Positions 1 to 63,985 of a DNA stretch of 64,000 bases are shown here, one piece after another. The notes below the pieces were generated by a model. The model saw only the letters and a program-made list of their open reading frames with translations, had not been told where the DNA came from and made no database searches. The translations under genes were made by a program, and so were the position numbers. Origin of the DNA: Candidatus Spyradenecus sp. (GTDB taxonomy: Bacteria > Verrucomicrobiota > Verrucomicrobiia > Opitutales > UBA953); assembly GCA_045535075.1 (NCBI GenBank), contig JAZSKX010000013.1, positions 70,284-134,283 on the forward strand. Direction: 5' to 3'. Position 1 is the first letter of the stretch; each line of letters opens with the position of its first letter.

Positions 1-35
1 TCTGCGGGAACACGTTTTCCGTCAGAAATGTTTTG

Positions 36-2137
36 ATGTCTGCACTCCTCAATCTATTTGAATATTACGGGTCCGTGCCGAACTATTTTATCGCGTTGGG
101 AGATTTTATCGCTTTTTCGGAAATACGTCGGGCGACAGAAGAATTCATCGCAATCCAAACGGATTTTCCCGCGGGAACGGAAATTTTAGAAGACGCGGAT
201 GATGCGGATGACATTGTTCGCATTTTCCGCCGGAAACTTTCCTCCTCCCGAATGCAAAAATCGCTTCGAAGCATTGCCGGAACACTCGTTCGAGTCATGT
301 CGGCTCAGAGACATTTTTTTGCGGGAACGGTTTCAACCATTTCCCCGATTGACAAAATAGCAGAATTTTTTTCGCTTTCGGAAAGCGAAGTCCGTACCCT
401 GGTATTTTTAGCCTGTTGGACTAAAACTCGCCATTTCGACAATTTGTGCGACGATGTCGCCGAAGGGCAATCCCGTGAAGAAGCGCTGAAGTTTTTGGCC
501 CGTTCCGTTCGGATAGAAACACACGAAGTCAACGGCGCTATTCGTAAACTCAAAGAGAAGAAAATCGTCGAAACTTCACGGCAGCGCTTTCCCGAATTGG
601 CGGACGAGATTAACGAATTCATTTTTGAATTCGACGGGGAAGATTTGGCACGGAAATTCAGTTCGTCGCTAGAGGTACTGAAAGTGTTTCCTACAAGTTC
701 TTTCGAGGTCGAAAACGAGGATGTCGAGATTATTTCCAAGCTGCTTTGTCATGAGCACGGCGCACACATTCTCTTTCACGGGAAACCCGGAAGCGGAAAA
801 ACAGAATTTGCCAAATCGCTTGCCAAAGAATTAGGGAAAGCAATTTTCGTTCCCGCACGTAAAGACGAAAAGAAGAATTCACTATCTCCGGTAAAAATTA
901 ATGCGACGCTTTTTGCCGCAAAAACGGGAGCGGGATTGCTCTTATCGACGAAGCGGACGACTTTTTAGAGACAGTGCCGCAAGGATTATCTTCCCTGTTC
1001 GGAGCGGGCGCAAGTAATCAGGAAAAAGGATGCGTGAACACACTGCTTGACGAAAGCCGCGCTCCGGTCATCTGGATTACGAATAGCATTGCGGGAATCG
1101 ACGAATCCACCCGCCGTCGCTTTGCCTACACTTTGGAATTTTCCGGAGTTTCAGATCGACAAAAGCGCCTTGTCCTAAACACGGCATTGCGGGAAAGCAA
1201 TATACCCGAACACCTAAGCGAAGCTATTTTTCCTCTTGTTCGCCAATATTCGCTTTCACCCGCCGGCATTTCGCTTTCCGTCAAAAACGCAAAAATCGTT
1301 TCCGCGGATTCCGAAGAAAAACTCTTGGAAAACATTCAGCGTATCGCGCAAAAGCATTATTCTTTAATCACGGGAAAGATGCCGTCGGAGAAAACGTTTT
1401 CCGTGGATTCCGAATTTGATATTTCGCTCCTGAATACCAATCCGCCCATCGAAGGCATCGTCCGAAGCATTGAAAACTACCGCGAAGCCGTTTATCGGGC
1501 AGGAAAAACTCTGCCGCTTTCCATGCTTTTCTCCGGAGCTCCGGGAACGGGAAAAATTCAACTCGGACGCTACATTGCTCGCCTACTCGACAAAGAAATC
1601 CTGATTCGACGAATCAGCGACATAAAAAGTCCCTTCGTCGGCGTCACGGAGAAAAATATCGCGCGTGCATTCCACGAAGCCGAACGAAGCAACCAAGTAC
1701 TGATGATCGACGAAGCCGATTCGCTTTTTCTTAACCGGCAGACAGCAACACGCTCATGGGAAATTTCCGAAACCAATGAGATTTTGGCGCAAATGGAACT
1801 GTTCAAGGGCGTTTTTATTTGCACAACCAACCTGCTTGAAAATTTCGATTCCGCATCCATGCGACGCTTCCACCGAAAAATCGGATTTCACCCGCTAAGC
1901 ATCGACGGGCGCACTAAAATCTTCAAACGCTATTTCCCGCAGATAAGCGTTGATGCCTCCGTTTTGATGCAAAAAATGAAAAGTCTTGAAGGAATTTGTC
2001 CGGGAGACTTCTGCACCGTTCGGGAACGGATGCGCTACGACACAGCGACAAGAGCGGAAGATATTTTCGGCGCGCTTGATGAAGAATTGCGTTACAAGGT
2101 TCGTGAATCCGCGCGAACGCCTATCGGATTTTTCTGA
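36..2137 (+). pseudogene. Tandem two-domain AAA+ ATPase, split by a frameshift at about 900-940 (ORFs 33..968 and 974..2137)
   Basis: ORF1 has Walker A GKPGSGKT. Its Walker B (LIDEADDF, 941-964) lies in the frame of ORF2. ORF2 carries a second AAA module (GAPGTGKI, MIDEADS, TTN, MRRF) and ends in PIGFF. Confidence 0.75.
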
Positions 2138-2183
2138 GGAATCGGGACAAAAGCGGTTTTCAGCAGCTTATAACTCAGCGCGA

Positions 2184-4286
2184 TTAGGAAAAGTGCCGAA
2201 AAGATGTTCTTCCCGAAACGTGCAACATTTCATAAGTGTTCGGGTCGGCTTCTCGGACAAAGCGCGATGCCTCCATCAAGCCGGGTTCTCCGTAGCCGGA
2301 GCGAATCTTTGGATAGAGCAAATAAAGTTCGTCTTTGGCGCGTGTTGAAGCCACGTAAAAAAGCCGTCGTTCCTCGTCAACGTCTCCGGATTCAATCGCA
2401 CGTTTGAGCGGGAACATTTCTTCGGCGCATCCGATGACAAAAACAATCGGATATTCCAGGCCTTTTGCCTGATGAATCGTGGAAAGGCGTATCATCGGGC
2501 GTTCCCGCTCTTCCCGATCAACGTCGCCTTTGTTCGTCTCCGAGTTCAGAAGAGTGAGCTGCGCCAGCAAATCGTCCAAGCTCGCGAATTTTTCGGCAAA
2601 GCCGATTAAGCTCTGCAAATCATCGCTGCGCTGTTGCCAGTCGGCATAAACATTTTTTATGAAATCGCCATACCAACCGTCTAAGCCTATGCGCACAATT
2701 TCGGCGGGCGTTCCCGTAATTCGCGGTGTTGCGGGAACGTGCGCTTGAGAGAGCGCTTCCTTTGTCGCGAAGGAAAACAAATCGTCTTCCGCTTCATCGG
2801 ATTCCTTCGGGCGCGTTTCCGTTTCCTCGCCGCGGAACGATTCATGCATGTCTTGAACGGAAATAATAAAATCCGTGTAGTCGTCCTTCGCTGCTTCCGG
2901 GATTTTTTTCAAAACCGCATCGTCCAAGAGTGCCGTAAACAGGTGAATTTTCTTCTTTTCGGCGATTTTCTTTCCGAGTTCGAGGGTTTTGCTTGCCGTT
3001 CGCGGGCCGACTTTTTCCATGAGCGCGAGCAAGCGGGAAAACGCGACACCGTCGTCCGGATTTGCCAAAAAACGAAGAATTGCAACAAAATCTCGAATGT
3101 GCGCCTGTTGGAAAAATTGAAGCCCGCTTGTAATCAAAAACGGAATTCCTGCGCGTGAAAGCTCCAGTTCCAGTTCTTTGGCGTGCGCATGCGCGCGATA
3201 CAAAACGATGATGTCGTTCGGCGAATAATCTTCGTCGTTAACGAGTGAGGCAATTCGGCGAATAACGAGGCGCGCCTGATCGTACGCGTCAATTGCCGGA
3301 ACAAGAAAAGGTCTTTTCCCGCGTTCCCGCGTTGCCCGGAGCGTTTTTGAGAAACCGAGGGATTCTTCCCGCGAGGCGAGTACGGAATTGGCGAAATCGA
3401 GGATTTGGGGAGTTGAGCGATAATTGATCTCGATTTTATGCAATGCCGTTCCCGCGTACGTTTCGGGGAAGCGCGTGATGTTTTCATAATTTGCGCCGCG
3501 CCAAGTGTAAATACATTGCGCATCGTCGCCGACCGCCGTCAGCGAATTTTCCTCGGAAATGAGGTTGCGGATGATTTCGGATTGGAGCGTGTTTGTGTCC
3601 TGAAATTCATCGACGAGAATATGGCGAAATCGTTTGGAATAGAGTTCCCGCACGCTCGGATTGTTTTCAAGAATTTCGAGGAAAAGCTCAAGCAAATCGT
3701 CAAAATCGCAAAGATTCTGCGTCCGCTTTTCCTCAGCGTAAGCCTCGCGAAACTGTGGAATAATGCGCTCTGCAGCAGGAACCCACGGCATACGTTCTTC
3801 GATAATTTCTTCGAGCGGGCGGCGAGTGTTGCGGGCGTAGCTGATTAAATCAAAAATAACTTTCGGCTTCGGAGCATTTTTCCCCTTGAGAAATTCCGCA
3901 TTTACGCGTTTGCAAACTTTGCCGAAGAGCGAATCCGCATCGCTCGCATCAAGAATCGTATAATCCTTTCGACGCCCTACTAATTCCGCATTGGCGCGCA
4001 AAACGCGCTGTCCGATGCTGTGGAAAGTTCCGCCCCAAAATTCGCTTCGCGGAACGCCTGTCAGGTCTTCTACGCGCGATAGCATTTCCGCTGCTGCTTT
4101 GTTGGTGAACGTCAGCAGAAGAATTCTCCACGGCGGAACGCCCTGCTCCAAAAGCCAGGCAACGCGATAAGTCAGCGTTCGCGTCTTTCCGGAACCGGCT
4201 CCCGCGAGCACGAGCGCAAAGCGTTCCCGCGACGTTACCGCCGCGAGCTGGTCGTCATTAAGTTCGGAGCGAAAATCGATCGACAT
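2184..4286 (-). CDS. pcrA: ATP-dependent DNA helicase, UvrD/PcrA family
   Basis: Motifs AGAGSGKT, TFTNKAA, DEFQD, VGDDAQCIY, NYRS, TIHQAKGLE, EERRLFYVA. Confidence 0.93.
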   Translation of the reverse strand: MSIDFRSELNDDQLAAVTSRERFALVLAGAGSGKTRTLTYRVAWLLEQGVPPWRILLLTFTNKAAAEMLSRVEDLTGVPRSEFWGGTFHSIGQRVLRANAELVGRRKDYTILDASDADSLFGKVCKRVNAEFLKGKNAPKPKVIFDLISYARNTRRPLEEIIEERMPWVPAAERIIPQFREAYAEEKRTQNLCDFDDLLELFLEILENNPSVRELYSKRFRHILVDEFQDTNTLQSEIIRNLISEENSLTAVGDDAQCIYTWRGANYENITRFPETYAGTALHKIEINYRSTPQILDFANSVLASREESLGFSKTLRATRERGKRPFLVPAIDAYDQARLVIRRIASLVNDEDYSPNDIIVLYRAHAHAKELELELSRAGIPFLITSGLQFFQQAHIRDFVAILRFLANPDDGVAFSRLLALMEKVGPRTASKTLELGKKIAEKKKIHLFTALLDDAVLKKIPEAAKDDYTDFIISVQDMHESFRGEETETRPKESDEAEDDLFSFATKEALSQAHVPATPRITGTPAEIVRIGLDGWYGDFIKNVYADWQQRSDDLQSLIGFAEKFASLDDLLAQLTLLNSETNKGDVDREERERPMIRLSTIHQAKGLEYPIVFVIGCAEEMFPLKRAIESGDVDEERRLFYVASTRAKDELYLLYPKIRSGYGEPGLMEASRFVREADPNTYEMLHVSGRTSFRHFS

Positions 4287-4306
4287 TTTATCGGAAGCAT
4301 CAAATC

Positions 4307-5035
4307 TTACACGTCGCCCTGCCCGTCCGCATTTTCGCGTTGGGCTTCGCGGGCATCGCGAATGATGCGCAAGCAGAGTTCCCGCAGATCGAAAATTCCC
4401 CGGCGCAATGCAGAGAAATCGGAACGGGAGCTTTCGGAAATCGTTTCGCGAGCCAAAGCTTCTCCAAGTTGTGCGGCAATTCCGAGATACTCATTCCAAG
4501 CGGCATGCGCCCGTTTCATCATCAGGATTGCCAATCCGTTTTCCTGCGCCGAAAGAGCATCAATCGCGAGCATCATCGATTGTTCGGCTCGGGAAAATCC
4601 GGCAGCAAGTGCAAGAATCGTTTCCGGAGAAAACGTCGAAAGAGTTTTGCGTTCCCGCGCGAAGATTGACCTCAAGCGATTTTGAGAAGAATCGACGATG
4701 GCGCGAATGGCGACGACTTCCGTCGTATTCAAAAGCGAATAAACCGGCGGCGGGCCGGGCGGCGGCGTAATCGAAAAATCTTGCCCGAACATTTTTACGA
4801 TTTCCTCCCGAGTTTCGGTTTCATCGCCATCGAGTTGCCACCCCATTGCCAGCGCGCACTTGTCCAAGCGATCTTCGTCGGCTCGAATTTCCAGTGTTTC
4901 GTAAAAACGGCGGAAGCGTTCAGTTTCGCGATCTGCCCAAGCGATAAAATGCGTCCATTCCGTTTCTGAGCAGTGAATTTCGGGCGAATTATCCTCGAAT
5001 CCTCCGTTGGAGCTACCTTCAAAATCTTTTTTCAT
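4307..5035 (-). CDS. Hypothetical protein
   Basis: Open frame filling the gap between cysE and the helicase on the same strand; ATG at 5035 (MKKDFEG); no recognised motif. Confidence 0.65.
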   Translation of the reverse strand: MKKDFEGSSNGGFEDNSPEIHCSETEWTHFIAWADRETERFRRFYETLEIRADEDRLDKCALAMGWQLDGDETETREEIVKMFGQDFSITPPPGPPPVYSLLNTTEVVAIRAIVDSSQNRLRSIFARERKTLSTFSPETILALAAGFSRAEQSMMLAIDALSAQENGLAILMMKRAHAAWNEYLGIAAQLGEALARETISESSRSDFSALRRGIFDLRELCLRIIRDAREAQRENADGQGDV

Positions 5036-5049
5036 GAAAATCCTTTTAC

Positions 5050-5868
5050 TTAACACGGCAAACGATGATTCATGCCGCCTGCCGGGTCGGCTTCTTGCGC
5101 CGTGCCGACAATGCGCGCGGGAACGCCGGCAACAGTCGCGTGCGCGGGAACGTCATCAAGCACCACCGAACCGGCGCCGACTTTCGCACAGTGGCCGATT
5201 TCGATATTTCCGAGAATTTTGGCTCCGGCGCCGATGAGCACGCCGGAGCGCACTTTCGGGTGGCGATCTCCGCGCGTTTTTCCCGTACCGCCGAGCGTTA
5301 CCGCATGCAAAATCGAGACATTATCTTCGACAACGGCGGTTTCTCCCGCAACGAAACCCGTCGCGTGGTCAAGCAGTATTCCGCATCCGAATTTTGCCGC
5401 CGGATGAATGTCGACGGAAAGTTTTTCCGAAACCTTGCTTTGAATAAAATGCGCGATATAGCGACGCGATCGATTCCAAAAATAGTGCGCGACGCGATGC
5501 GCGGAAATGGCGAGGAATCCTTTATACCAAAGGAACGGAACCAACAACGATTCACACGCGGGATCGCGCTCCACGGTTGCAAAAATATCGTTTCGGCAGC
5601 TCCGGGCAATTGTAGAATCATGCGCAAAGGCTTCGAGGCAAAGCGCGGCAATCGCGTTGTATTCTTTTTCGGTTGAAGCTAATTTGTGCGCAATGCGAGC
5701 GCTCATCGCAAAATCAAAATCACGTTGGTTTAATACAAAAGTATTGAGCGTTTCCGCCAACGCCGGCTCGCGGACAAGCATTTCCTGTGCGCGTTCCCGC
5801 ATCTGCCGCCACAGCAAGGCAGTCTCGTCGGTTTTGTCCGAGTCTTGCATCTCAATTGAATCAATCAT
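5050..5868 (-). CDS. cysE: Serine O-acetyltransferase
   Basis: RDPAC, DIHPAAKFG, LDHATG, VTLGGTGK, DRHPK, hexapeptide repeats, GVPAR. Confidence 0.95.
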   Translation of the reverse strand: MIDSIEMQDSDKTDETALLWRQMRERAQEMLVREPALAETLNTFVLNQRDFDFAMSARIAHKLASTEKEYNAIAALCLEAFAHDSTIARSCRNDIFATVERDPACESLLVPFLWYKGFLAISAHRVAHYFWNRSRRYIAHFIQSKVSEKLSVDIHPAAKFGCGILLDHATGFVAGETAVVEDNVSILHAVTLGGTGKTRGDRHPKVRSGVLIGAGAKILGNIEIGHCAKVGAGSVVLDDVPAHATVAGVPARIVGTAQEADPAGGMNHRLPC

Positions 5869-5917
5869 TACTGGAATGGGGGAAAATTAAAACCTCACTT
5901 TTCTTGTTTCGCGACAT

Positions 5918-5959
5918 AAAAAACCCGCAGAGAGAAAAGGAGGAGGAACTCTCTGCGGG
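5918..5959 (-). terminator. Intrinsic terminator downstream of tRNA-Cys
   Basis: Stem CCCGCAGAGAG (5924-5934) / CTCTCTGCGGG (5949-5959), followed by a U-tract on the minus strand. Confidence 0.7.
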
Positions 5960-6001
5960 CAATCCGGGCAAGCCGGATTTGGTTGGATTGGGAGAAAAAA
6001 T

Positions 6002-6077
6002 TGGAGGTGTGGGGCGGATTCGAACCGCCGCATAGTGGTTTTGCAAACCACGGCCTTAACCACTTGGCTACCACACC
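6002..6077 (-). tRNA. tRNA-Cys(GCA)
   Basis: Reverse complement GGTGTGG TAGCCAAGTGGTTAAGGC C GTGGT TTGCAAA ACCAC ... GGTTCGAATCC GCCCCACACC TCCA: cloverleaf, GCA anticodon, encoded CCA. Confidence 0.96.
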
Positions 6078-6092
6078 AAAAATTTAAAATTC

Positions 6093-6121
6093 ACTATGTC
6101 TTTTTACCGCATTCAAAGCAA
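6093..6121 (-). promoter_or_regulatory. Possible sigma70 promoter of tRNA-Cys
   Basis: Minus strand TTGCTT-N17-CATAGT, about 15 nt upstream of the tRNA. Confidence 0.4.
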
Positions 6122-6194
6122 GCGTTTTTTTAGAAAACACAAAATAAGCGGATTTTTGCGAGGAAATCGAAATTCTGGTCGAAGCTTAATTCCG

Positions 6195-6224
6195 CTGACA
6201 AACAGGCGCATTGCGGTTTATAAT
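6195..6224 (+). promoter_or_regulatory. Sigma70-like promoter of yggS (probably leaderless)
   Basis: CTGACA-N18-TATAAT, ending 6 nt before ATG 6231. Confidence 0.5.
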
Positions 6225-6230
6225 ATACCA

Positions 6231-6956
6231 ATGATTTCCTTTGAGCATTTTGAAGAAAATTGCCTGCGCGTGCGGGAACGCGTCGCCGAAGCCTGTCGTA
6301 CCTGCGGGCGCAATCCTGATGAAGTTTGCATTCTTCCCGTGACCAAAAACCACCCCGTTGAAGCGCCGATTTATGCGGCCAAAGCCGGCTTTCCTGCTGT
6401 CGGGGAAAATAGAGTCCGAGAAACGGAAGTTAAACGCAGTGAATTTTTTACACGCAGTGAGACTTCTTTGCGCTGGGAACTTATCGGACATCTTCAAAGC
6501 AACAAGGCGCGCAATGCAGTACGTCTCTTTGACCGAATTCAATCCGTGGATTCGGTTTCGCTCGTACAAAAACTTGATCGACTTTGCGAGGAGCTTGCGC
6601 GGGAACGGCTTCCCGTATTGCTTCAGGCAAACGCCGGAAACGATCCTGCGAAGTTCGGAACCGGAGACTTTGATTCGTTGCGCCGGCTCACCGAATCCGC
6701 TTTTGCGGGAACGCATTTGCAAGTTGACGGGCTGATGTGCGTTGCGCCGATTGACGACGATTCTCTCGAAACGGCGAAGCGGTGCTTCGAAACGTTGCGT
6801 ATTTGGCGCGATCGCCTGGAATCCGAATTCGGGCGCGCGCTCCCGCAACTTTCCATGGGCATGTCGCACGATCTCGTTCCCGCCGTTGCCGCAGGTTCCA
6901 CAATGGTGCGTATCGGCACGGCGCTTTTCGGCGAACGCGATTATTCCCGCACATAA
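6231..6956 (+). CDS. yggS: PLP-binding homeostasis protein, YggS/PROSC family
   Basis: PVTK, GENRVRE, IGHLQSNK, LSMGMSHD, GSTMVRIGTALFG; start taken at ATG 6231. Confidence 0.93.
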   Translation: MISFEHFEENCLRVRERVAEACRTCGRNPDEVCILPVTKNHPVEAPIYAAKAGFPAVGENRVRETEVKRSEFFTRSETSLRWELIGHLQSNKARNAVRLFDRIQSVDSVSLVQKLDRLCEELARERLPVLLQANAGNDPAKFGTGDFDSLRRLTESAFAGTHLQVDGLMCVAPIDDDSLETAKRCFETLRIWRDRLESEFGRALPQLSMGMSHDLVPAVAAGSTMVRIGTALFGERDYSRT

Positions 6957-7010
6957 AGGATTAAAAAACTCGAAAGCCTTTCACTAAGTCTGTAGAACTT
7001 AAATACAACC

Positions 7011-8891
7011 ATGAGTTTGCTCATTCATTTTCTCGGCTTTTTTACCGCCTCAATTCCCGTTTGTCTTGCTGCCGCAATCGCCCGCCTCTTAGGACGCATC
7101 GTTTTCGCGACAATGCCTTCCCGCCGCCGCCTTGTTTTGCGAAATCTTCATCATTGTTTTCCGGAAAAAACGGAAGACGAGCGTCGGGCAATCGCCCTCG
7201 AAAGTACATGTCGCATGGTGGAAATGGGAATGTTCGTACTCGCGGCACCGTATTTTTCCGAAAAGAAAATTCGGAGTCGTTTCACGATGGACGCAAAGGC
7301 GATTGATGCTGTTCTCGACGCTCAAACGCCGGTTGTAGCCGGTGTCCCGCATTTCTCTCTGATGGAAGTTCTCACGATGATTCCGCTTTTTTCGGAATCC
7401 GTAAAAAAGCGCGATTGCGGTGTTTTCTACCGCCCGTTTGATAATTCTTCCATCGAGCGCTGGGTAAAATCCACACGGGAACGCTTCGGCTTTAAGCTGC
7501 TTTCCCGAAAAAAAGGACTCACGCAAGCACTCTCCTTCCTCGATAAAAACGGCATCGTTTGTGTTCTCTTTGACCAAAGCCCCGGGAAAAAGCGCGGCGT
7601 TCTTTCGCTCTTCGAAGACCGAGTCGTCACCAATAGCATGCTCGCGGGAACGCTGGCTGCGGGGAAAGCCGGAACACAACTCATCACGGTTTACTGCGAG
7701 CGGAGCGGATTTTGGCGCGGAACGATTCGCATCGAAAAACCCGAAGTTTCCGAACTTTCCGCCGTCGGCTACACCGTCGCGCTCAATCGCTGGCTTGAGG
7801 GAAAACTCGCCGAAAATTTCAATCTCTGCTCGGACTGGCTTTGGATGCACGACCGTTGGAAAGGGTTCAACGGATTAAATCTCGAACACCGGAAAAGTAT
7901 TCTTGAAGAAACCGTAAGGCTGTACGGCTACGATGCGCTCCCGCGAAAGAAGCGCATTTGGATTCGCCTTCCGAATTGGCTTGGTGACATCGTTATGGCG
8001 TTCCCGCTGATTCAAACCATCCGCGCCGCGCGGCCGGACGCGCAGATTACCTTGCTCGCGCGCAAGCATTTTCTCCCGATGCTCGAATTACTCGGTGTTG
8101 CCGATCGACTCATCGCGCTCCCGCCCAAGGGCAAGGGCTATTGGAAATTCTGCCGCAATCTGCGAACGGAATATCCCGACCAGCACTTGCTGTTTACAAA
8201 CTCGTTGCGCGGCGATGTCGAAGCGAAGCTCATCGGCGCACCGCAACGTTTCGGCATGGTTCGCAAAGGCTATCCGCGCCCGTATCTCACGAAAAAATGG
8301 CGCGTTCCCGCAGACTTGGATTTGACAAAAAATCATCAAACTCATGTTTGGGCTCAATGGTTGCGGGAATCCTGCGGACTGAAACACGAACTTGATTTTT
8401 CTCCGATTAAAATCGAATCGGAAAAACAATTACGCATCGGAATGATTTGCGGCACGGAAAATTCTCCGGAAAAACGCTGGCCGATTGAACGCTGGCGGGA
8501 ACTCATTGCGCTCCTGCAAAAAAAATATCCGAACCTGCAAATCTATCTTTTCGGAACGGCAAAAGACGGAGCCATTACAGCTCAAGTTGCCGAGGGACAA
8601 AATGAAAATGTCGTCGACCGAGCCGGGAAAACCGACCTTCCCGCATATATGCGAGAGCTTGCATCCTGCTGCGCCATCTGCGGGAACGACACCGGCGGCA
8701 TGCACCTGGCAAATATGCTCGGCGTTCCCGTCGTCGGTATTTTCGGGCCGACAAATCCCGTCCGCACGGGACCGATCTTCAACGCTCCGGCATGTATTCT
8801 TCAACCGGAAAATTGCCCGCCCACCGGCGGCGCCGATATTCGAGGCGTTTCCGCTCAAAACGCCTGTAACGCACTCGAAAAATTTATTTAA
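7011..8891 (+). CDS. Fusion: lipid A late acyltransferase (LpxL/HtrB-like) plus GT9 heptosyltransferase (WaaF-like)
   Basis: N-half: HFSLME (HX4E), YRP, LFDQ, WLWMHDRWK. C-half: RLPNWLGDIVM, KRWP, GKTDL, NDTGGMHLA, IFGPT. Confidence 0.85.
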   Translation: MSLLIHFLGFFTASIPVCLAAAIARLLGRIVFATMPSRRRLVLRNLHHCFPEKTEDERRAIALESTCRMVEMGMFVLAAPYFSEKKIRSRFTMDAKAIDAVLDAQTPVVAGVPHFSLMEVLTMIPLFSESVKKRDCGVFYRPFDNSSIERWVKSTRERFGFKLLSRKKGLTQALSFLDKNGIVCVLFDQSPGKKRGVLSLFEDRVVTNSMLAGTLAAGKAGTQLITVYCERSGFWRGTIRIEKPEVSELSAVGYTVALNRWLEGKLAENFNLCSDWLWMHDRWKGFNGLNLEHRKSILEETVRLYGYDALPRKKRIWIRLPNWLGDIVMAFPLIQTIRAARPDAQITLLARKHFLPMLELLGVADRLIALPPKGKGYWKFCRNLRTEYPDQHLLFTNSLRGDVEAKLIGAPQRFGMVRKGYPRPYLTKKWRVPADLDLTKNHQTHVWAQWLRESCGLKHELDFSPIKIESEKQLRIGMICGTENSPEKRWPIERWRELIALLQKKYPNLQIYLFGTAKDGAITAQVAEGQNENVVDRAGKTDLPAYMRELASCCAICGNDTGGMHLANMLGVPVVGIFGPTNPVRTGPIFNAPACILQPENCPPTGGADIRGVSAQNACNALEKFI

Positions 8892-8900
8892 CGACAATCC

Positions 8901-9980: not shown

Positions 9981-10220
9981 CGAGAACGCGTCGCGAAAAT
10001 CGTCTACCGCCGTCAAAACGGTAATTCCTCCGCAAAATCTTCCTGCAGAGACAATTCACTTTCCCGCGGGAACGCATGTTTGACGACGTCTTGAGCGCTC
10101 CGATTTTTGCCTCCATGCAAGAACGAATCAAATTTTTCAGTTACGAAAACCTCGTGCGTCAATTCGAAGCCGTGACTGCAATTTCCCGCCTTGCGGAAAC
10201 AATTTGATCGTTGTTTTCTT

Positions 10221-18210: not shown

Positions 18211-18212
18211 CG

Positions 18213-54559: not shown

Positions 54560-54622
54560 TTCGTGGCTAAAGATTAGGGATTATGAATTAAGGACGCTTC
54601 TAAAAATGTAATTTTTAAAAGC

Positions 54623-54737
54623 CCGATGAGAGCGAATGGTCGGAGCTTAGAGGTGAATGCATTTCCGTAGCGGAAAAAGATTTCGATCTCTTTTTCGTGC
54701 AATCACCCATCGCCTTTCAACCCTCAACTCTCATCGG
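54623..54737. repeat. Long imperfect intergenic hairpin with heptamer repeats
   Basis: Nested pairings CCGATGAGAG/CTCTCATCGG, GGTGAATGCA/TGCAATCACC, GAAAAAGA/TCTTTTTC. Confidence 0.6.
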
Positions 54738-54745
54738 AGTTTACC

Positions 54746-56386: not shown

Positions 56387-56461
56387 AAGTGTAAAAAGTT
56401 AGAGGGAAAGACTATCAAAACATCTACAGGCAACGCAAGCCGCGGGAACGCAAGTTGAAAT

Positions 56462-56501
56462 AAAAAAGGGCGTTCCCGCGCGAACGGCGGAAACGCCTTT
56501 T
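56462..56501 (-). terminator. Intrinsic terminator of argJ; degenerate inverted motif pair
   Basis: AAAAAAGGGCGTTCCCGC...GCGGAAACGCCTTTT. Confidence 0.7.
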
Positions 56502-56517
56502 ATCTTCGGAAACGAAA

Positions 56518-57795
56518 TTATTCGCCTTTGTTGAAGTCAACGTAGGCTTCCGTTAAATCTGTCGAAATTAAGCGATAGTCATGCGTCCCGATATTGAGGA
56601 ATAAACGAATGTCGAATTCTTTCTTGGCAACGACCTCGCGCCATTTCGCTTCGTTTTGTCCTTGAAGCTCGCCTTTGAGAAATACGGGAACGTCGTCGTA
56701 ATAAAGATCAATTTTGCTTTGATCAATGCCGCATTTCGCATACCCCGCCGAGCACAAAATACGCCCCCAATTCGGATCGCCGCCGCACCATGAGGCTTTT
56801 ACCAAAAGCGAATTGCCGATCGAACGCGCAATTTTGTTCGCATCCGCATCCGTACGTGCGCCGTGGACGTGGAGCGTAACGACGCGAGAAATCTTTTCGC
56901 CGTCGCCGACAATTTTCTTCGCCAAACTGAAGCAGACTTTTTCGAGAGCTTCGCGGAAAAGCGCCAATCCTTCCGGATCGTTTTCCGTAATTTCCGCTCC
57001 CGATTCGCCGTTGGCAAGAATCAAAACCGTGTCATTCGTCGACATGTCGCCGTCAACGGAAACGCAATTAAACGACTGCCCGACGGCGTGCCAAAGGCAT
57101 TTTTGAAGCAATTCCTGCGAAATCTTCGCATCCGTCGCAAGCAATCCGAACATAGTCGCCATATTCGGTTCAATCATTCCCGCGCCCTTCGCCATTCCGG
57201 AAATCGTAACCGTTTTACCGCCGACAACGCCCAGCGCCGCGCCCACATTGAATTTCGCCGTACAGGTTTTTCTCCGCGTATCCGAAGTCAAAATCGCATC
57301 GGCGGCACGTGCAGATTCCTGCAAATCGGGCTTTAAGCGGCGAATTGCCTCCCGCATTCCGTTTTCAATTTTTTCCATCGGGAGTTTCACGCCGATACGT
57401 CCCGTCGAGCAAACAAAAAACTGTTCGGTTTTGCACGCCAGCATTTCGGAAACAAATTCGCACATACGATGCGCATCTTTCATTCCGCGTTCGCCCGTAC
57501 ACGCATTTGCGTTCCCGCTGTTGGCGACAATGCCGTGCATTGCACATTTTCCGTTTGCGTGATTCCGCAAATGCGCCTGCGAAACATAAACCGGAGCCGC
57601 CTTGACATCATTCGTCGTAAACGTTCCCGCCGCCGTGCAAGGACTTTTCGAGTAAATCAAAGCCAAGTCGAGACGCTTGGCGTCCTGCTTGTTGCGAATA
57701 TCGCAAGCCGTTCCCGCGACCGCGAATCCGGGAACTTCGGCAATTCCGTTAGTGTCGTCAATAAATTGAATTTTCGAAATCAGGTTTTCAAACAT
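56518..57795 (-). CDS. argJ: Bifunctional ornithine acetyltransferase / N-acetylglutamate synthase
   Basis: NSGNANACTG, STGRIG, KGAGMIEPNMATM, DGDMSTND, DGE, DPNWGR. Confidence 0.96.
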   Translation of the reverse strand: MFENLISKIQFIDDTNGIAEVPGFAVAGTACDIRNKQDAKRLDLALIYSKSPCTAAGTFTTNDVKAAPVYVSQAHLRNHANGKCAMHGIVANSGNANACTGERGMKDAHRMCEFVSEMLACKTEQFFVCSTGRIGVKLPMEKIENGMREAIRRLKPDLQESARAADAILTSDTRRKTCTAKFNVGAALGVVGGKTVTISGMAKGAGMIEPNMATMFGLLATDAKISQELLQKCLWHAVGQSFNCVSVDGDMSTNDTVLILANGESGAEITENDPEGLALFREALEKVCFSLAKKIVGDGEKISRVVTLHVHGARTDADANKIARSIGNSLLVKASWCGGDPNWGRILCSAGYAKCGIDQSKIDLYYDDVPVFLKGELQGQNEAKWREVVAKKEFDIRLFLNIGTHDYRLISTDLTEAYVDFNKGE

Positions 57796-57851
57796 GGCAA
57801 ATAATTTTCGTTGAGTTTATCGCTAAGCCCGAAATAAAGAAAGCAAAGAAG

Positions 57852-60425
57852 TTATTGTTTCAGCGTGCCGCGCGTAACGCCGAGCTTGGACTCGAGGCGG
57901 AGTCCGCGCCAGAGCGCGTTCCCGTCGATTTTCCCCGCAAGCAAATCGCGATAGCGCCCGAGAATTTCCGTCATGAGTTCCGGCGTTTCATCGATAAATT
58001 CGATGCGGAAATTGCGTACGCCCCGGGAGCGGATTTCGTCGAAAAACTCCGCGCCCGTTTGCGCACGCGCATTGTAAACCGTGTTGCGGCAACCCGCATC
58101 GGCTTTGACAAGATGTTCCAAGCCCGTGCGGTCGCGCAAACGCACAACATGTTTTTCGCATGGACGCCCGCAGTCGCGAAAATCTTTTCCTTCCGACAAA
58201 AACGAACAGAAAACACAGTGCTCCATGTGAAACATCGGCATGTGCTGATGGAGCGTAACTTCGATTTTCTCCGGCGCGGGAACGCGCTCAAGCATCGCAC
58301 AAAGTTGCTCCAAATTCATATCATAAGACGCGGTTACACGTTCCAAATTGCGTTCCCGCAAATAATATTCCGCCGTAAGGTGATTCGCTACGTTCAGCGA
58401 AAAATCGCCGCGCACACGCGTTCCCGCGAACGCGTAGAGATGTTCGTGAGCACGCACGAGAAAACCGTCCGCGCCGCATTCGCGCACAACGCGCAAAATG
58501 CCGGCTTCGTCTGCCGCCTGCTTGAAAATGCGCGGCGGCTGCGCCCAAAACTCCGCCTCGGGAACGGCATGCACGCGCTCTGCGGCAACGCGGTAATCGC
58601 GCGGATTTTCAAACTCCGCGTAAATTGTTTTCGCGCCGAACGCCAGAGCCGCCTCCACCTGCGCCAATTCCCGGACCACAGGAATCAAGCGGGCGGGAAA
58701 ACATTCCGGCTTTCCTTGAGGGAGCGACGAACCATCGGGAACGCCGGACAAATCCGCTGCATCCGCCGTTCCCGCATCGCTCGGCGAAGACAAGACAGGC
58801 TTCGTTTCCGGAATTGTCCACTTCACGGAGTTTTCGCGGGCAGCGTTGAGTTTTTCGACGAGAGCGCGTCGCAACTTGTTGGCGACGCTTGCGGGAACGA
58901 GCGGCGAGCCGGAAATCTCCGATTTCCAGTCGTCTAAAAAATATCCCGTTCCGCCGAGCCGGGCGAACTGCTCGCGTAGCCACGCGTCGCTTGCCGGTTT
59001 ATTCGTCGCGGGAACAAGCGCGTCGCCGATTTCCGCCGAAACCGTGTTTCCGCAGGCATCGTCGCATTCCGCGCGGAGCGGTTTTCCGGTTTCGGCGAAA
59101 ACACGCATATTGATTTCGCGCGCCCAATGCGGCAGGTCTCCGGCAAACGTTTCGCGGATGTTTGCCGTGAGCGCGGGATCGGAGGTTTTCCAAAGTTTAT
59201 CTCCGCGGCGCACGCGTTCCCAGCGGATTCCGGCGCGTGCGAAACGCACGAAAACTTCGCCGCTCCCGCGCGCTTTTTCCACGCCGTAAACGTAGCCGCC
59301 CTCCTCTTTTTCTTCCGGTTTTCCCGCGTCGAAAACTACGCCGTCGCCGGATTTCAGCGCTGCTTTCAGGTGCACGAAAACGCCGTCTTTGCCGAAGCCG
59401 GAAACTTCCCCGAGAAATACGCCGCGCTTTTTTCCGAAGCGCGCGTGAACGAGCTCGCGATTATTGATGCCGCGCATCCAGCCCGTGTAAAGCCCGCGTG
59501 AAAACGCCATCTCCAGCGCGTAGGCGTGGCGTTCCCGCAATTGTTTGGCAAAAGCGGAAAGCGTTTCGGCGGGAACGCCGTCCGTAATCATTTCGTGGAT
59601 ACGATCTACGCTGTCGCGGTAAACGCGCGTTACGGAAGCGACGTATTCCGGGGTTTTTAGGCGACCTTCGATTTTGAGCGAACGCACACCGAGGCGCATC
59701 AGCTCCGGAAGCATTTCCACGCCCGCCAAGTCCCGCGGCGAAAGCAAGTAGCGGCGCGCGCCGAGCGGCACTTTTTCTCCGTCGCAAATCAATTCATACG
59801 GCAAGCGGCACGCCTGCGCGCACTCGCCGCGATTGGCGGAGCGGCCGCCGAGCGCCTCGCTCGTCAGACATTGCCCGGAATACGCCACGCACAATGCGCC
59901 GTGCACGAACATTTCAAGCGGGAGCGATTCCGCCGGATTCGCGTTCCCGCGCGCGACAATTTGCTCCAACTCGCCGATATTTACTTCGCGGGAAAGCACC
60001 GCGAGCGACGCGCCGAGTTCCCGCGCAAAACGCACGCCCGCGGCGGAGGAAACCGTCATTTGCGTCGACGCGTGAACGGGAAAATCCGGCGAAATTTTGC
60101 GAATCAGGCGCACGATGCCGACATCCTGCACGATCGCCGCGTCCACGCCGGACGCGATGATTTTTCGAAGTTCTTTTTCCGCTTCTTCGAGCTCGTTTGA
60201 AAAAATCAGCGTGTTGAAGGTAACGTAGCCGCGCACGCCGCGCCGATGGAGAAATTTCATCAGCTTGGGCAAATCGTCGGCGACAAAATTGTCCGCACGC
60301 ACGCGGGCGTTAAACCGCCCGACGCCGAAATAAATTGCGTCCGCGCCGTTTTCGACGGCGGCTTTCGCGCATTCCCACCCGCCTGCGGGCGCGAGCACTT
60401 CGGGCTTTTTCATTTCAAAATTCAT
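57852..60425 (-). CDS. U32 family protein with DUF3656-like extension (RlhA-like RNA hydroxylation protein)
   Basis: PEVLAPAG, HASTQM, FVHGALCVAYSGQC, SANRGECAQACR, LKIEGR; C-terminal HCVFC...CGRPC. Confidence 0.85.
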   Translation of the reverse strand: MNFEMKKPEVLAPAGGWECAKAAVENGADAIYFGVGRFNARVRADNFVADDLPKLMKFLHRRGVRGYVTFNTLIFSNELEEAEKELRKIIASGVDAAIVQDVGIVRLIRKISPDFPVHASTQMTVSSAAGVRFARELGASLAVLSREVNIGELEQIVARGNANPAESLPLEMFVHGALCVAYSGQCLTSEALGGRSANRGECAQACRLPYELICDGEKVPLGARRYLLSPRDLAGVEMLPELMRLGVRSLKIEGRLKTPEYVASVTRVYRDSVDRIHEMITDGVPAETLSAFAKQLRERHAYALEMAFSRGLYTGWMRGINNRELVHARFGKKRGVFLGEVSGFGKDGVFVHLKAALKSGDGVVFDAGKPEEKEEGGYVYGVEKARGSGEVFVRFARAGIRWERVRRGDKLWKTSDPALTANIRETFAGDLPHWAREINMRVFAETGKPLRAECDDACGNTVSAEIGDALVPATNKPASDAWLREQFARLGGTGYFLDDWKSEISGSPLVPASVANKLRRALVEKLNAARENSVKWTIPETKPVLSSPSDAGTADAADLSGVPDGSSLPQGKPECFPARLIPVVRELAQVEAALAFGAKTIYAEFENPRDYRVAAERVHAVPEAEFWAQPPRIFKQAADEAGILRVVRECGADGFLVRAHEHLYAFAGTRVRGDFSLNVANHLTAEYYLRERNLERVTASYDMNLEQLCAMLERVPAPEKIEVTLHQHMPMFHMEHCVFCSFLSEGKDFRDCGRPCEKHVVRLRDRTGLEHLVKADAGCRNTVYNARAQTGAEFFDEIRSRGVRNFRIEFIDETPELMTEILGRYRDLLAGKIDGNALWRGLRLESKLGVTRGTLKQ

Positions 60426-60439
60426 CTATGCGACCTTTC

Positions 60440-63400
60440 TCACCCGTTGTATTTTTTGAAGTTTTCGGCTTGTTCGAAGATTTCTTTGAAAACTTCGTCA
60501 TTGGTCACGGGCGGATAGCCGTGTGCGTCGAGAATAAGTATCAGATCCATTTTCAGTGCCGCTTTTATGTCTTCGCGCTGCGCCCAATCCGCGTAGCGTG
60601 CCTTGTCGTCCACGATTTTCTTAATTTCCGCCGCGAGAGCTACAAGTTTTTCCTCCGGATAATCGAAGCCGAACTTTTTCGCGATGGACTTCAAGATATC
60701 GTAAAAAGCTTTTTCTTCGTAGGAAATCCCCAAGTCTTTAAAGGATTTTTTCTCGGTGTTGATTTCGTGCAGAAGCGCTGCCATTCGGTCGGCGACTTCG
60801 GAAAGCACTTCTTCCGCCAAAACGGCGTTGTCGCTCCGGTCATTATACCGCGCGACCAAATCATTGAGGCGCTTTGAAAAATCGACACCTTTCATTTTGT
60901 TGACCTTCTGAAACTCCGAAATCACCGTTTTCAGAAGGCGTTCCATCAGCTTGATTTTCGTGTTCGGGAACGGCAATTTCGCCAAACGCGCCATGTAATC
61001 CGCGTCCAGTACATCGAGCGTCTCGTTCCCGCTTCCGAGCTGAATAATTTCTTCAACGCCCTCGGAGCGAATCGCCTCTTCAATCATTGCCGCCACGCGC
61101 CGGTTCATTTGCTCGGTATCGGGAGAGTTCCCGCGGGAAAGTTTCGCGATAATTGCCCGAACGCCGCAAAAATAGTGAATTTCCTCACGTTCTGTATCCG
61201 AGATTTCCTCGTTGCCGCCGCAGAGATTGAACGCCGACTTCAATTTTTTCGCGTGTCCCATGAAAAGGGTTTCGCGTTCCTTGGTGGCTTGAGCAAACTC
61301 CGCGCCGCGATTCAGACAATCAAGCTGCTCCAGCGGCGTTCCCGTCGTAAATAAAGAATAATCGAATTTGGAAAACAACCGGCGAAGAATATCGAGCTCG
61401 TCTTTTACCAGCGTAACGGATTTTTCCGCCGTTTCAACGGAATCGCCGACAAATTCGCCCGACGCATACTTTTTCAGCGCCTGATCCATGCTGTTTTTGA
61501 TGCCGAAATAATCGACGACCAAGCCTTTGTCTTTGCCGGGAAAAACACGGTTTACGCGGGAAATAGTCTGCACGAGCGTATGCATTTGCAACGGCTTATC
61601 AATGTACATCGTATCTAAGCACGGCGCATCAAAACCCGTTATCCACATATCGACTACGATGGCGATTTTGAAATCGGAATCCGGATCTTTGAATAATTTG
61701 TCGAGGTTTTTGCGATCCTCGTCGCTCCCGAGCAAGTCATAGAGTGCGGATTCGTCATCTTTACTGCGCGTCATAACGAGGTTAATTTTCCTGCACGGTT
61801 GCGGAGCATTCCCGTAATGTGACGCCGATTCCGCCGCCATCAGAGGTGCGTTCCCGAAGCTCAACATGTTTTCAGCGTTCCCGCCCGAAGAGACTTCCGC
61901 CCACTCCGGCCGCAACGCAATAATTTTTTTATACAAATCGTAAGCGATGGTTCGATTCGCACAAACAATCATCGCCTTGCCCTTCACTGTAGCGCCTTCA
62001 GCAAGGCGGTTTTCGTAATGCGCAATAAAATCTTCCGCAACCGCCTGTAAGCGGTCGGGATCGCCCAAAATGCGCTCCATCCGCGTTACGGCTCGCTTGC
62101 TGGACTCGATCTGATACGGATTGGTACCTTCCGCCTCGCACATTCGGTAGTATTCCTCAATTTCGCGAAGCTTCGCGTTATCGAGCATTACCCGCGCCGC
62201 GCGTCCCTCATAAACAATGCGGCGCGTAATGCCGTCCGCCACGGATTCCGTCATCGTATACGCATCGACGACATCGCCGAAAACGCGTATCGTCTCGTCA
62301 ATCGGCGTTCCCGTGAAGCCGACATAGGTCGCATTCGGGAACGAGTCGTGCAAATATTTTGCGAAGCCGTAGCTACGCCGCACGCCGCTTTCTTCCCGTC
62401 GCACCTGCTGAGCGAGATTCGTCTGCGAGCGATGTGCTTCATCCGAAATACAAACGATATTCGCTCGCTCGGAAAGCAGCTGTGTGTCTTCGGTGAATTT
62501 GTGAATCGTTGTCAGAAAAACTCCGCCGCTCGTGCGGCCGGCAAGGAGCTCCCGCAATTTCGCGCGGCTTTCCACCGAGACAACGCATTCGTCTCCGATA
62601 AATTGCTTTGCGTTCCCGAATTGCTCGGAAAGTTGCGTATCCAAATCCGTGCGGTCCGTGATCAAAACAACGGTCGGGCTCGCAAACTCGCGGGAACGCA
62701 TCAGCATCCGCGTCAGGAAAAGCATCGTGTAGCTTTTCCCGCAACCTGTTGCACCGAAATAAGTTCCGCCCTTCCCGTCGCCGCCGGCTCGCATTTTGGA
62801 ATGCGCAAGGATATTTGCGAAAAGCTTATGCGTCGCAAAAAACTGCGGATAGCGGCAAACGACTTTCAGTTCTTTTTTCGACGAATCGGGCAAAAAAACA
62901 AAATCCTTTATCACGCTGAGCAAACGCTCCTTGCGAAACAGCCCGCGCACCATCGTCTTCAGCGAATTGATCCCGTCCGCCGCAGGCTCGCCCGGCTCCG
63001 CTTTGTTCCACGCGTAGAAAAAATCATACGGGGTGAAAAGCGAGCCGTATTTGTTATTCACTCCGTCACTGATGACGGTAAACGCGTTGCACTTGAAAAG
63101 CTCCGGAATATCCCGCCGATAGCGCACCGTCAACTGCCTGAAAGCATCATAAATCGTCGCGTCTTCCCGCACGGCACTCTTAAACTCAAGCACGACCATC
63201 GGCAAACCGTTGACAAAAACGATCCCGTCGGGAACGCGCGTTTCCGTCCCCTTAATTTCAAACTGGTTGACGATTTTGAATAAATTACCCGAAACACCGT
63301 TCCCGCTGAAATCAATCGGCTCAATATATAAATTCGGACGCGAAGCATCGTCCCGCTTCAGCGAAAAACCCTCCGTAATGAGACGATACGTTTTGACGTT

Positions 63401-63637
63401 GTTTTCGTAAAGCGACGTTCCCGCATCTGCGGAAAGTACTGCCAAAGCGCGCTCAATTTCCGTCGACGTAATCCCGTCCGATGCGTAGCGTTCCCGCAAA
63501 TACGCCCGAAAATCGTCGCGCAAAAGCACGTCGCCCGAGTCGCGCACAATTTCGTTCCCGCAAACGTAATCATAGCCTTCCGCACGGAAAAGCTCTATTA
63601 TTGCCATTTCAAGCGTGTGTTCGTCAAAGTGCGCCAT
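60440..63637 (-). CDS. hsdR: Type I restriction-modification system endonuclease subunit R
   Basis: PDGIVFVNGLP...EFK nuclease motif; ATGCGKS, DR.DLD.QL, DEAH, GFTGTP, MWITGFD, QTISRVNR. Confidence 0.95.
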   Translation of the reverse strand: MAHFDEHTLEMAIIELFRAEGYDYVCGNEIVRDSGDVLLRDDFRAYLRERYASDGITSTEIERALAVLSADAGTSLYENNVKTYRLITEGFSLKRDDASRPNLYIEPIDFSGNGVSGNLFKIVNQFEIKGTETRVPDGIVFVNGLPMVVLEFKSAVREDATIYDAFRQLTVRYRRDIPELFKCNAFTVISDGVNNKYGSLFTPYDFFYAWNKAEPGEPAADGINSLKTMVRGLFRKERLLSVIKDFVFLPDSSKKELKVVCRYPQFFATHKLFANILAHSKMRAGGDGKGGTYFGATGCGKSYTMLFLTRMLMRSREFASPTVVLITDRTDLDTQLSEQFGNAKQFIGDECVVSVESRAKLRELLAGRTSGGVFLTTIHKFTEDTQLLSERANIVCISDEAHRSQTNLAQQVRREESGVRRSYGFAKYLHDSFPNATYVGFTGTPIDETIRVFGDVVDAYTMTESVADGITRRIVYEGRAARVMLDNAKLREIEEYYRMCEAEGTNPYQIESSKRAVTRMERILGDPDRLQAVAEDFIAHYENRLAEGATVKGKAMIVCANRTIAYDLYKKIIALRPEWAEVSSGGNAENMLSFGNAPLMAAESASHYGNAPQPCRKINLVMTRSKDDESALYDLLGSDEDRKNLDKLFKDPDSDFKIAIVVDMWITGFDAPCLDTMYIDKPLQMHTLVQTISRVNRVFPGKDKGLVVDYFGIKNSMDQALKKYASGEFVGDSVETAEKSVTLVKDELDILRRLFSKFDYSLFTTGTPLEQLDCLNRGAEFAQATKERETLFMGHAKKLKSAFNLCGGNEEISDTEREEIHYFCGVRAIIAKLSRGNSPDTEQMNRRVAAMIEEAIRSEGVEEIIQLGSGNETLDVLDADYMARLAKLPFPNTKIKLMERLLKTVISEFQKVNKMKGVDFSKRLNDLVARYNDRSDNAVLAEEVLSEVADRMAALLHEINTEKKSFKDLGISYEEKAFYDILKSIAKKFGFDYPEEKLVALAAEIKKIVDDKARYADWAQREDIKAALKMDLILILDAHGYPPVTNDEVFKEIFEQAENFKKYNG

Positions 63638-63692
63638 CGGATTGCGATTTTCACGAAAAGCCTCCGAAAACGCGAGAACAAAGGCGCAAAAA

Positions 63693-63985
63693 CCTCATTC
63701 CCGACGAATGGGGCGTCTCCTCCGGAGACGATGTGGGCGGGGGGCGTACTGTCCGTAGGTTGAGTGTGGGAACGTGTTTCAACCTTCGGTTATCCCATGG
63801 GAGTCCGCTACGCGGACAAAAACATACTCGACACTACCTCAATACCTGCGAAACAGATATACACAGGATAACCACAGGTGAAACACTCCGCGTTTTACCT
63901 GCAGACAGAACAATGGACCTGACCGTCTCCGAAGGAGACGCACATAGGATAACCGTAGGTTGAGAGCTCCGCTCGAAACCTACGG
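63693..63985. repeat. Cluster of REP-like palindromic repeats (three degenerate units plus short CGTCTCC/GGAGACG hairpins)
   Basis: GGATAACC..AGGT(T)GA...ACCT units at about 63753-63817 (minus), 63864-63904 and 63943-63985; CGTCTCC-N3-GGAGACG at 63714-63730 and 63924-63940. Confidence 0.7.

Follow-up and report, generated by a model that had tools for sequence, protein, structure and literature searches.

What is the short word GCGGGAACG, and why does it recur throughout a 64,000-nucleotide stretch of the genome of Candidatus Spyradenecus sp. (Verrucomicrobiota, Opitutales)? This whole stretch, positions C2:70284-134283 of assembly G000 (GenBank GCA_045535075.1), is referred to here as the window. 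An earlier reading made from its letters alone (the sequence-only reading) had proposed a new DNA uptake sequence (DUS) or a genome signature like the cyanobacterial HIP1. Our analysis characterised GCGGGAACG as a genus-specific genomic signature word, with a strict CGGGA followed by A-C-G, a weak y-R before it and a weak c after it. We rate the chance as somewhat better than even that it acts as a DNA-uptake-type self-recognition word kept by molecular drive. Whether it would represent a third independently evolved system of self-recognition in DNA uptake, the first outside Proteobacteria and with a reader unrelated to ComP, is in our view evenly balanced.

The G000 assembly comprises 1.95 Mb in 18 contigs, with 52% GC and a rated completeness of 99.45%; no 16S rRNA gene is present in it. 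In the window we counted 129 exact copies of GCGGGAACG (56 on the plus and 73 on the minus strand), whereas 100 dinucleotide-preserving shuffles averaged 2.18 copies, had 7 at most and never reached the observed number. The 8-base core CGGGAACG was found 191 times (87 plus, 104 minus), 19 of these copies being intergenic. The word field is as follows.

171..63561, no strand assigned: 129 copies of GCGGGAACG and 191 of the core CGGGAACG, coding and intergenic, from the whole-window count and logo.

All 21 start positions listed by the sequence-only reading for the first 10 kb were exact (11 plus, 10 minus), and the motif did continue to the end of the window, with its last copy at 63553. The variants described as (A/T)CGGGAACG were also real: the base preceding the core was G in 63%, A in 25%, T in 8% and C in 5%. 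Genome-wide, we found 3,244 copies of GCGGGAACG (1,581 and 1,663 on the two strands) compared to 34 for the reversed-word control, and 5,159 copies of the core, whose density is 2.4-3.2 per kb on all large contigs. Other words fell far behind: among 9-mers without overlap to this one, the most enriched were A/T-run words, which reached about 30 times what mononucleotide composition predicts. The word is non-palindromic, its reverse complement CGTTCCCGC being different, and it lacks the self-complementarity of HIP1-type words. Uptake sequences are described in PMC1852404 as having about 1,000 or more copies per genome. GCGGGAACG exceeds this number, with copies on both strands and in genes as well as between them.

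To place the copies relative to genes we used our own greedy longest-open-reading-frame (ORF) calls and not a trained gene finder (1,508 genes covering 91% of the genome). About 86% of the GCGGGAACG copies lay inside these calls, and the 442 intergenic copies (13.6% of the 3,244) fell in about 8.7% of the DNA. All six frames were used, as the sequence-only reading had suggested for several frames and for intergenic DNA; the commonest was sense frame 0 (GCG GGA ACG) with 978 of the 3,244 copies. This preference would suit an explanation in which the word is a by-product of codon or peptide usage, for example of Ala-Gly-Thr-rich repeat proteins, and so would one gene of the window.

32913..38591, minus strand: autotransporter/PMP-repeat gene of 1,892 aa with 17 sense and 1 antisense copies of the 9-mer; sense frame 0 reads Ala-Gly-Thr.

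It is because of this gene that a long run of minus-strand copies is seen in the middle of the window. However, when synonymous codons were shuffled within each gene (30 shuffles), which keeps every protein and the codon counts of each gene, only 161 sense and 92 antisense copies were obtained, compared to 1,670 and 1,147 observed. The excess is thus about 10-fold over a null that already includes the imprint of the word itself on codon and amino-acid usage. It had been anticipated that the enrichment might disappear under a codon-aware null; it did not. The two most over-represented tripeptides of the proteome, AGT and VPA (5.1 times each), are the translations of the word in two frames, and RER (3.6 times) and RSR (3.2 times) were also over-represented. 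Of all Ala-Gly-Thr tripeptides, 81% use the spelling GCGGGAACG, whereas codon usage would give 6.9%. The word shapes proteins, and the peptide excess is a consequence of the DNA word and not its cause. Together with the intergenic enrichment, this leaves the by-product explanation with hardly any probability. A true case of that kind, found in the sister genome G019, looks different. There, CGGGTACG and CGGGCACG recur about 120 times in C2:1-55000, all but once on the same strand, as a word excess driven by peptide repeats; we had considered both as dialects and rejected them, since they occupy one strand of one giant repetitive gene region.

The logo of the word read y-(G/A)-CGGGAACG-c, with at most 0.03 bits at positions further out. 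In the downstream flank T stood at 0.30-0.32, and no clear AT-rich segments were seen. The hexamer GGGAAC occurs 6,920 times in the genome and is preceded by C in 94% and followed by G in 77% of cases. GCGGGAACG is a short word and not a piece of a longer repeat. Single-base variants at positions 2-6 of GCGGGAACGC (C-G-G-G-A), which are the strictest, occurred at 0-15 times expectation, compared to 348 times for the word itself. Substitutions of the second A to G, of the last G to A or T and of the first G to A were tolerated, and all eight core positions were constrained, both A's included. This graded profile looks like the binding specificity of a protein. It could point to a binding-site array, in which an abundant genus-specific DNA-binding protein, either a nucleoid organiser or a protein that sets a 'self' mark for defence or repair, would have its coverage of the genome selected; the near-uniform core density on the large contigs is in line with this as well.

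The strand distribution bears on the same alternative. Chi and KOPS/FtsK-orienting words strongly favour the leading strand and occur about one-tenth as often. Sign changes of the GC skew, at around C16:200 kb and C2:60-80 kb, were taken as the putative origin and terminus, which would place the start of the window near the terminus. On this basis 2,698 of 4,919 core copies (54.8%) were on the leading strand, and the intergenic copies were divided 345:323. Within genes, the sense strand was preferred in 63% if the gene is co-oriented with replication and in 54% in the others. The contrast that had been drawn with the strand-polarised Chi and KOPS therefore holds, as strict polarity is absent. 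The coefficient of variation of the gaps was 1.10, inflated by 16 gaps longer than 3.2 kb (0.9 expected); leaving these out, it was 0.967 compared to 0.996 ± 0.013 in simulated random placements. Known organiser or guide words are polarised and far rarer, unlike what we see here, and no candidate protein was identified. Moreover, selection on each of about 5,000 copies, which alter proteins, would be hard to sustain, and two lineages described below lost the maintenance of the word without visible harm and at similar genome size. We therefore regard a binding-site array, to which the chromosome-organising protein suggested by the sequence-only reading would belong, as quite unlikely.

Close copies of the word are arranged in a preferred configuration. 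Within 60 bases we found 239 inverted pairs CGTTCCCG...CGGGAACG compared to 92 in the opposite order, and their spacing peaked sharply at 20 bases start to start. At 10-30 bases there were 131 intergenic inverted pairs, and 124 of these had an A-run and/or a T-run: 67 an upstream A-run and a downstream T-run, 30 only a T-run and 27 only an A-run, with neither in the remaining 7. In total, 48 pairs lay between convergent, 77 between co-directional and 6 between divergent genes. The paired copies are predicted to have been co-opted as stems of intrinsic terminators at gene ends. Five examples from the window were folded.

10234..10260, no strand assigned: inverted pair CGTTCCCG...CGGGAACG, preceded by an A-run and followed by a T-run, bidirectional terminator-like, between the convergent genes mnmA (plus) and pyrophosphate (PPi)-phosphofructokinase (minus); fold -26.8 kcal/mol.
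11636..11662, no strand assigned: inverted-pair hairpin 3' of the enolase gene (minus); fold -18.7 kcal/mol.
20256..20282, no strand assigned: inverted-pair hairpin immediately 3' of rho (minus); fold -19.6 kcal/mol.
47160..47187, no strand assigned: inverted-pair hairpin with A7 and T9 runs, 3' of a PEP-CTERM protein gene (plus); fold -20.5 kcal/mol.
56443..56478, no strand assigned: inverted pair in the opposite (+-) configuration, 3' of argJ (minus); fold -23.2 kcal/mol.

Terminator use of close inverted copies is a trait of known uptake sequences: DUS and the uptake signal sequence (USS) show a like co-option, preferred pair configuration included (PMC1852404, PMC13020248). The 131 pairs also resemble a repeated hairpin unit, as expected if the word were a miniature mobile hairpin or terminator module spread by insertion, like a repetitive extragenic palindrome (REP) or a miniature inverted-repeat transposable element (MITE). 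However, such elements are longer intergenic units, whereas the 9-mers within gene calls are single in-frame copies spread over all six frames. Furthermore, the flanks are uninformative beyond one or two bases, loops and spacings vary, and orthologous sites differ by point substitutions and not by insertions or deletions. Spread by insertion is thus very improbable. Phages that match the hairpin pattern were rejected as carriers of the word: 27 viral contigs all showed background levels of 0.2-0.7 core copies per kb, hairpin included.

Two genes of the window deserve mention beside these hairpins. Rho (20307-22556, minus strand) has 749 aa, and its conserved region starts only at about residue 333, giving the protein a long N-terminal extension. 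At 7011-8891 (plus strand), one frame of 626 aa fuses a lipid A lauroyl-acyltransferase-like part (residues 3-287) to a heptosyltransferase-like part (residues 468-624).

The taxonomic range of the word was determined with dnaE of the window as the marker for the genus tree and for relatives.

14206..18210, plus strand: dnaE, from gene annotation, with 6 sense and 3 antisense core copies.

DnaE of G000 shares 94% identity with contigs whose titles read Opitutales bacterium or Candidatus Spyradenecus sp., and 83-84% with Candidatus Spyradosoma sp.; both genus names reportedly come from a study of metagenome-assembled genomes of the chicken gut (PMC8035907). Copies of the 9-mer per genome were distributed as follows.

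Dense genus members, G000 included (15 of 19 genomes): 3,060-5,581 copies.
G001, G002 and G013, sparse (3 genomes): 732-760 copies.
G014, sparse (1 genome): 340 copies.
Sister genera of the same family (6 genomes): 23-82 copies.
Other families of the order (16 genomes): 0-196 copies.

In the 22 genomes outside the genus, counts were about those of the reversed-word control. The survey of relatives that had been proposed thus found the word dense in 15 of 19 congeners and in 0 of 22 genomes outside; like known uptake sequences, it is shared within a clade and absent beyond it. In a quick maximum-likelihood tree of DnaE, the genus stands on a long stem and splits into two major clades, both with dense genomes; within the genus, DnaE identity goes down to 65% and the GC content of dnaE ranges over 45-66%. 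G001, G002 and G013 form a tight clade that is sister to G000, while G014 stands alone on a long branch and its placement is less sure. The dense genomes in both clades argue that the word was ancestral to this one deep Opitutales genus, within which it has faded twice. Between G000 and relatives whose DnaE is 94% identical, genes have been reshuffled almost one by one; 19 kb of contig L002, for example, map to six different G000 contigs.

To see how individual sites fare, 400 kb of the dense G018 and 412 kb of the sparse G001 were projected on G000 by BLAST. About 240 kb aligned in each case, with 77% (G018) and 79.5% (G001) identity; the alignments favour conserved DNA, but the baselines were taken from the same alignments.

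G018 (dense) compared to G000: core sites identical in 370 of 597 (62.0%); all 8-base windows 17.1%; same-composition words 29.1%; one-mismatch words 23.6%.
G001 (sparse) compared to G000: core sites identical in 143 of 674 (21.2%); all 8-base windows 22.1%; same-composition words 22.4%; one-mismatch words 19.1%.

Seen from the other side, 370 of 618 sites in G018 and 143 of 174 in G001 were also sites in G000. Moreover, among 51 G018 sites that could be aligned in all three genomes, G000 kept 32 and G001 kept 13, none of them in G001 alone. A retention of 62% in G018 against the 21.2% of G001, which is at baseline, argues for a word-specific force that preserves sites in the dense lineages and has been switched off in the lineage of G001. 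The sparse lineages keep a similar genome size.

In the 412 kb sample of G001 we found no replacement dialect, and GCGGGAACG was still the top enriched G+C-rich word. The word CACCACCAACCC of G014 was considered as a dialect and rejected as it is clustered at contig ends and not dispersed. A repeat of approximately CACCACCAACCC is found on contigs C1-C10 of G014, many of which are about 5.7-6.1 kb long; its 9-base core has 80 copies in 87 kb, at contig ends and in short arrays, compared to 7 copies in G000 and 0 in the first 119 kb sampled of G001. No genome-wide word was seen in small samples of G020 (120 kb), G021 (37 kb) and G022 (46 kb).

DNA that was acquired recently is poor in the known uptake sequences, and USS are few, for instance, in the Mu-like prophage of H. 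influenzae Rd. In G000 we found ten stretches of 5-16.5 kb with at most a handful of core copies, and most of these deserts have an atypical GC content of 0.40-0.49. Pfam annotation of our own ORFs gave the following contents.

C8:21001-33500: Mu-like prophage.
C16:183501-222500: Mu-like prophage in three blocks.
C12:43027-50171: restriction-modification (R-M) island with a C5 methylase, an NgoBV-like nuclease, an AAA_15 ATPase and an HpaII-like nuclease.
C9:58072-65035: defence island with type I HsdR and Hachiman (HamA and helicase).
Further desert: fused helicase gene of 1,609 aa.
Further desert: radical-SAM/PMP block.
Further desert: block with a PD-(D/E)XK nuclease.
Further desert: the rpoB-rplJ-rplA-rplK-nusG cluster of highly conserved genes.

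Two of the ten deserts are poorly annotated low-GC blocks. The prophages were recognised by genes for Mu Gam, a MuB/TniB-like ATPase, a Mu portal and a protease, and the word is nearly absent from the two. A C5 methylase is encoded in one of them, a D12-class methylase and a protein with an ADP-ribosyltransferase domain in the other. Foreign DNA is without the word, as seen in the two prophages and in the R-M and defence islands, and one block of highly conserved genes is likewise without it. Mobile DNA devoid of the word would also suit the self/non-self mark of the binding-site array discussed above.

A repeat of about 570 bases lies near contig ends of G000 (C1:5095-5669, C6:339-905, C11:1877-2410, C12:11-340 and C13:25855-26415) and has two further matches each in L004 and L005; an insertion sequence or another multi-copy element that breaks the assembly is the probable explanation.

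We then looked at genes that could serve DNA uptake. G000 has ComEC (C11:3775-5487), DprA (C9) and a PilM-to-secretin operon (C12), and a PilB-PilT-PilB-PilC set on C5 adjoins RecD2. The prepilin-like genes comprise one for a PilA-like pilin of 141 aa and six larger ones, four of which form a conserved cluster between rluD and ruvX; the seven are located in the cluster C1:259100-262397 and at C16:98944-99864, C2:44974-45813 and C5:99026-99451. Two uncharacterised proteins are encoded downstream of the secretin. The three pilins that were searched match solved pilins over the N-terminal helix only. The sole strong HHH_3 match in G000, a frame of 805 aa, we take to be Tex-like. The sequence-only reading had seen no competence gene in the window and had asked for competence machinery elsewhere; a type IV pilus set with ComEC and DprA is indeed present, whereas ComEA was not found and the genes are intact in the sparse genomes too.

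Loss of an uptake gene was considered as the cause of the decay and rejected: the sparse genomes still carry ComEC, DprA, PilB/PilT, an undiminished count of prepilin genes, the secretin and the pilin cluster, free of internal stops. The four-gene pilin cluster is kept there at 79-91% identity, and a rough relative-rate look at stop-to-stop frames gave no acceleration of the pilins specific to the sparse lineage. Genes with a prepilin motif number 10-11 in G001, G002, G013, G014, G004, G018 and G012, compared to 7 in G000 and the other clade, and a third GspE-type ATPase is found in six of these seven genomes (the exception being G012, at 82% completeness). These genomes may therefore have a second pilus or secretion system, absent from G000; the extra genes do not track word density.

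A different force could give the same picture. In a repair or modification ratchet, sequence-specific modification together with mismatch repair or gene conversion would turn near-matches into the word with no uptake at all; mechanisms of this type have been proposed for HIP1-type words and for very-short-patch repair. Such a drive would likewise confine the word to a clade, conserve its sites above baseline, let them decay once the enzyme is lost and leave new DNA without the word. Methylases do exist in G000, with two C5, three HsdM and one MmeI-family enzyme, and one of the D12 class in a prophage; the methylase survey covered four Pfam families. In addition, the word core ends in AC, in the manner of the sites that MmeI-family enzymes recognise. 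However, both C5 methylases are located in word-free foreign islands (a prophage and the R-M island), and neither a Vsr endonuclease nor a PF01555 methylase was found in G000. Vsr-type repair was rejected as the driver on this ground. The MmeI-family enzyme was rejected as driver on its distribution, as relatives were found in only 10 of the 19 genus genomes and the same query recovered none from 7 dense ones, among them G003, G006 and G009, which are three of the four densest. Moreover, a deamination-repair ratchet acts on one C/G position, whereas here all eight positions are held, with two A's among them. Of the orphan methyltransferases that had been suggested to co-occur with the word, methylases are thus present, but none in the four families was seen to track it, and the methylation/repair alternative raised at the same time is weakened. 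We consider the ratchet unlikely, though not negligible.

The MmeI-family gene itself, at C2:15779-18766 about 50 kb upstream of the window, encodes a full-length type IIL R-M enzyme of 995 aa and has a normal word density. It is followed by a reverse-transcriptase-domain gene of 937 aa with zero word copies and by a T5orf172-domain gene; the whole span, C2:15779-21592, looks like a defence cluster of mixed age. The homologue of the MmeI-family gene in G001 has an internal TAA.

We return to the reading of GCGGGAACG as an uptake-type word. By analogy with the classical systems we infer biased uptake with recombination as the force, and a pilin or another pilus-associated protein as the reader of the word. 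In the type IV pilus/ComEC route, a DNA receptor at the cell surface would prefer fragments that bear the word, and word-bearing alleles of dead relatives would be taken up and recombined more often than word-less ones. Molecular drive at the level of DNA, and not selection on each copy, would in this way create and maintain the word. It would accumulate wherever proteins tolerate it, and pairs would be co-opted as terminator stems. The uptake signal proposed by the sequence-only reading is favoured by the excess over the codon null, the symmetry, the graded constraint on all eight core positions, the effect on the proteome, the restriction to the genus, the terminators, the absence from foreign DNA, the maintenance of sites and the presence of uptake-type genes, while the missing ComEA and the decaying lineages that keep their machinery speak against it.

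These and several other points count against an uptake function. ComEA was not found in G000, with nothing above the TIGR00426 cut-off, and a search with three of the seven prepilin-like proteins against all Protein Data Bank (PDB) chains gave no match to ComP at E ≤ 1. ComEC, DprA and pili are also present in control genomes without uptake sequences, and the uptake-type genes lend little weight because they are common in such bacteria. All four sparse genomes have ComEC, DprA, PilB/PilT and a secretin without internal stops. There is a mild strand asymmetry: the sense strand has 59% of the coding copies, and the leading strand 54.8% of the total. The spacing is only slightly more even than random. 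Natural transformation in Verrucomicrobia was not reported among the matches listed. Finally, the comparative signatures are those expected from a repair-based drive as well, and biased uptake and biased repair are inseparable from sequence alone.

If the uptake reading is true, self-preferring DNA uptake would have arisen repeatedly, and natural transformation would occur in a gut phylum without a documented case, in hosts that are uncultured or barely cultured anaerobic gut Verrucomicrobia. Unlike the classical systems, this genus offers dense and decaying lineages side by side (62% versus 21% retention), which allows a direct test of biased uptake, biased repair and selection against each other. 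Two natural 'knock-out' lineages would make the reader mappable by comparative genomics and the theory of molecular drive testable. GCGGGAACG is also a clear-cut marker with which these genomes can be binned and foreign DNA in them recognised, and it may be a handle for genetic tools. No published description of the word or its core was found, only primer-type matches being among the matches listed, and no literature that joins 'DNA uptake sequence' and Verrucomicrobia was on this topic by title or abstract.

How does the word compare with known systems? HIP1 (GCGATCGC) of cyanobacteria is a hyper-abundant palindromic 8-mer that occurs in coding and non-coding DNA across its clade and whose mechanism is unresolved. 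GCGGGAACG is likewise hyper-abundant, coding and non-coding, and clade-wide. Unlike HIP1, it is non-palindromic, pairs as terminators and is absent from prophages. With Chi and KOPS it shares the nature of a short over-represented oligomer, which in those cases is read by DNA machines, but its leading share of 54.8% and intergenic ratio of 345:323 set it apart from them.

The closest parallels are DUS and USS. Like DUS, the word is non-palindromic and clade-specific, has thousands of copies on both strands, in genes and between them, and forms terminator pairs. Its density in the genus is about 1.7-3.3 9-mers per kb. This is above that of DUS and two to four times denser than the classical cases. 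The consensus DUS of Neisseriaceae is GCCGTCTGAA (PMC13020248), and dialects of it exist (PMC3630211). GCGGGAACG is unrelated to GCCGTCTGAA or its dialects, belongs to Opitutales in the phylum Verrucomicrobiota, and comes with no ComP-like match for the three of seven prepilin-like proteins searched and no dialects in the sister-genus samples. Like USS, it has a strict core of 8-9 bases with weak flanks, an effect on the proteome, and terminators with a preferred pair configuration. The USS of Pasteurellaceae, with the consensus AAGTGCGGT (PMC13020248), likewise shapes the proteome (PMC2817400), and a pilin is predicted as its receptor (PMC12616744). Here the core is not AAGTGCGGT, and the AT-rich flanking segments are absent, with flanks of at most 0.03 bits beyond ±2 bases. 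In two recent sources, one of them a 2026 survey of terminators across thousands of genomes (PMC13020248), uptake sequences are placed in Neisseriaceae and Pasteurellaceae only (10.1101/2025.10.24.684340; PMC13020248). In its behaviour GCGGGAACG matches DUS and USS, but it is a different word in a different phylum, and its reader is presumably independent as well.

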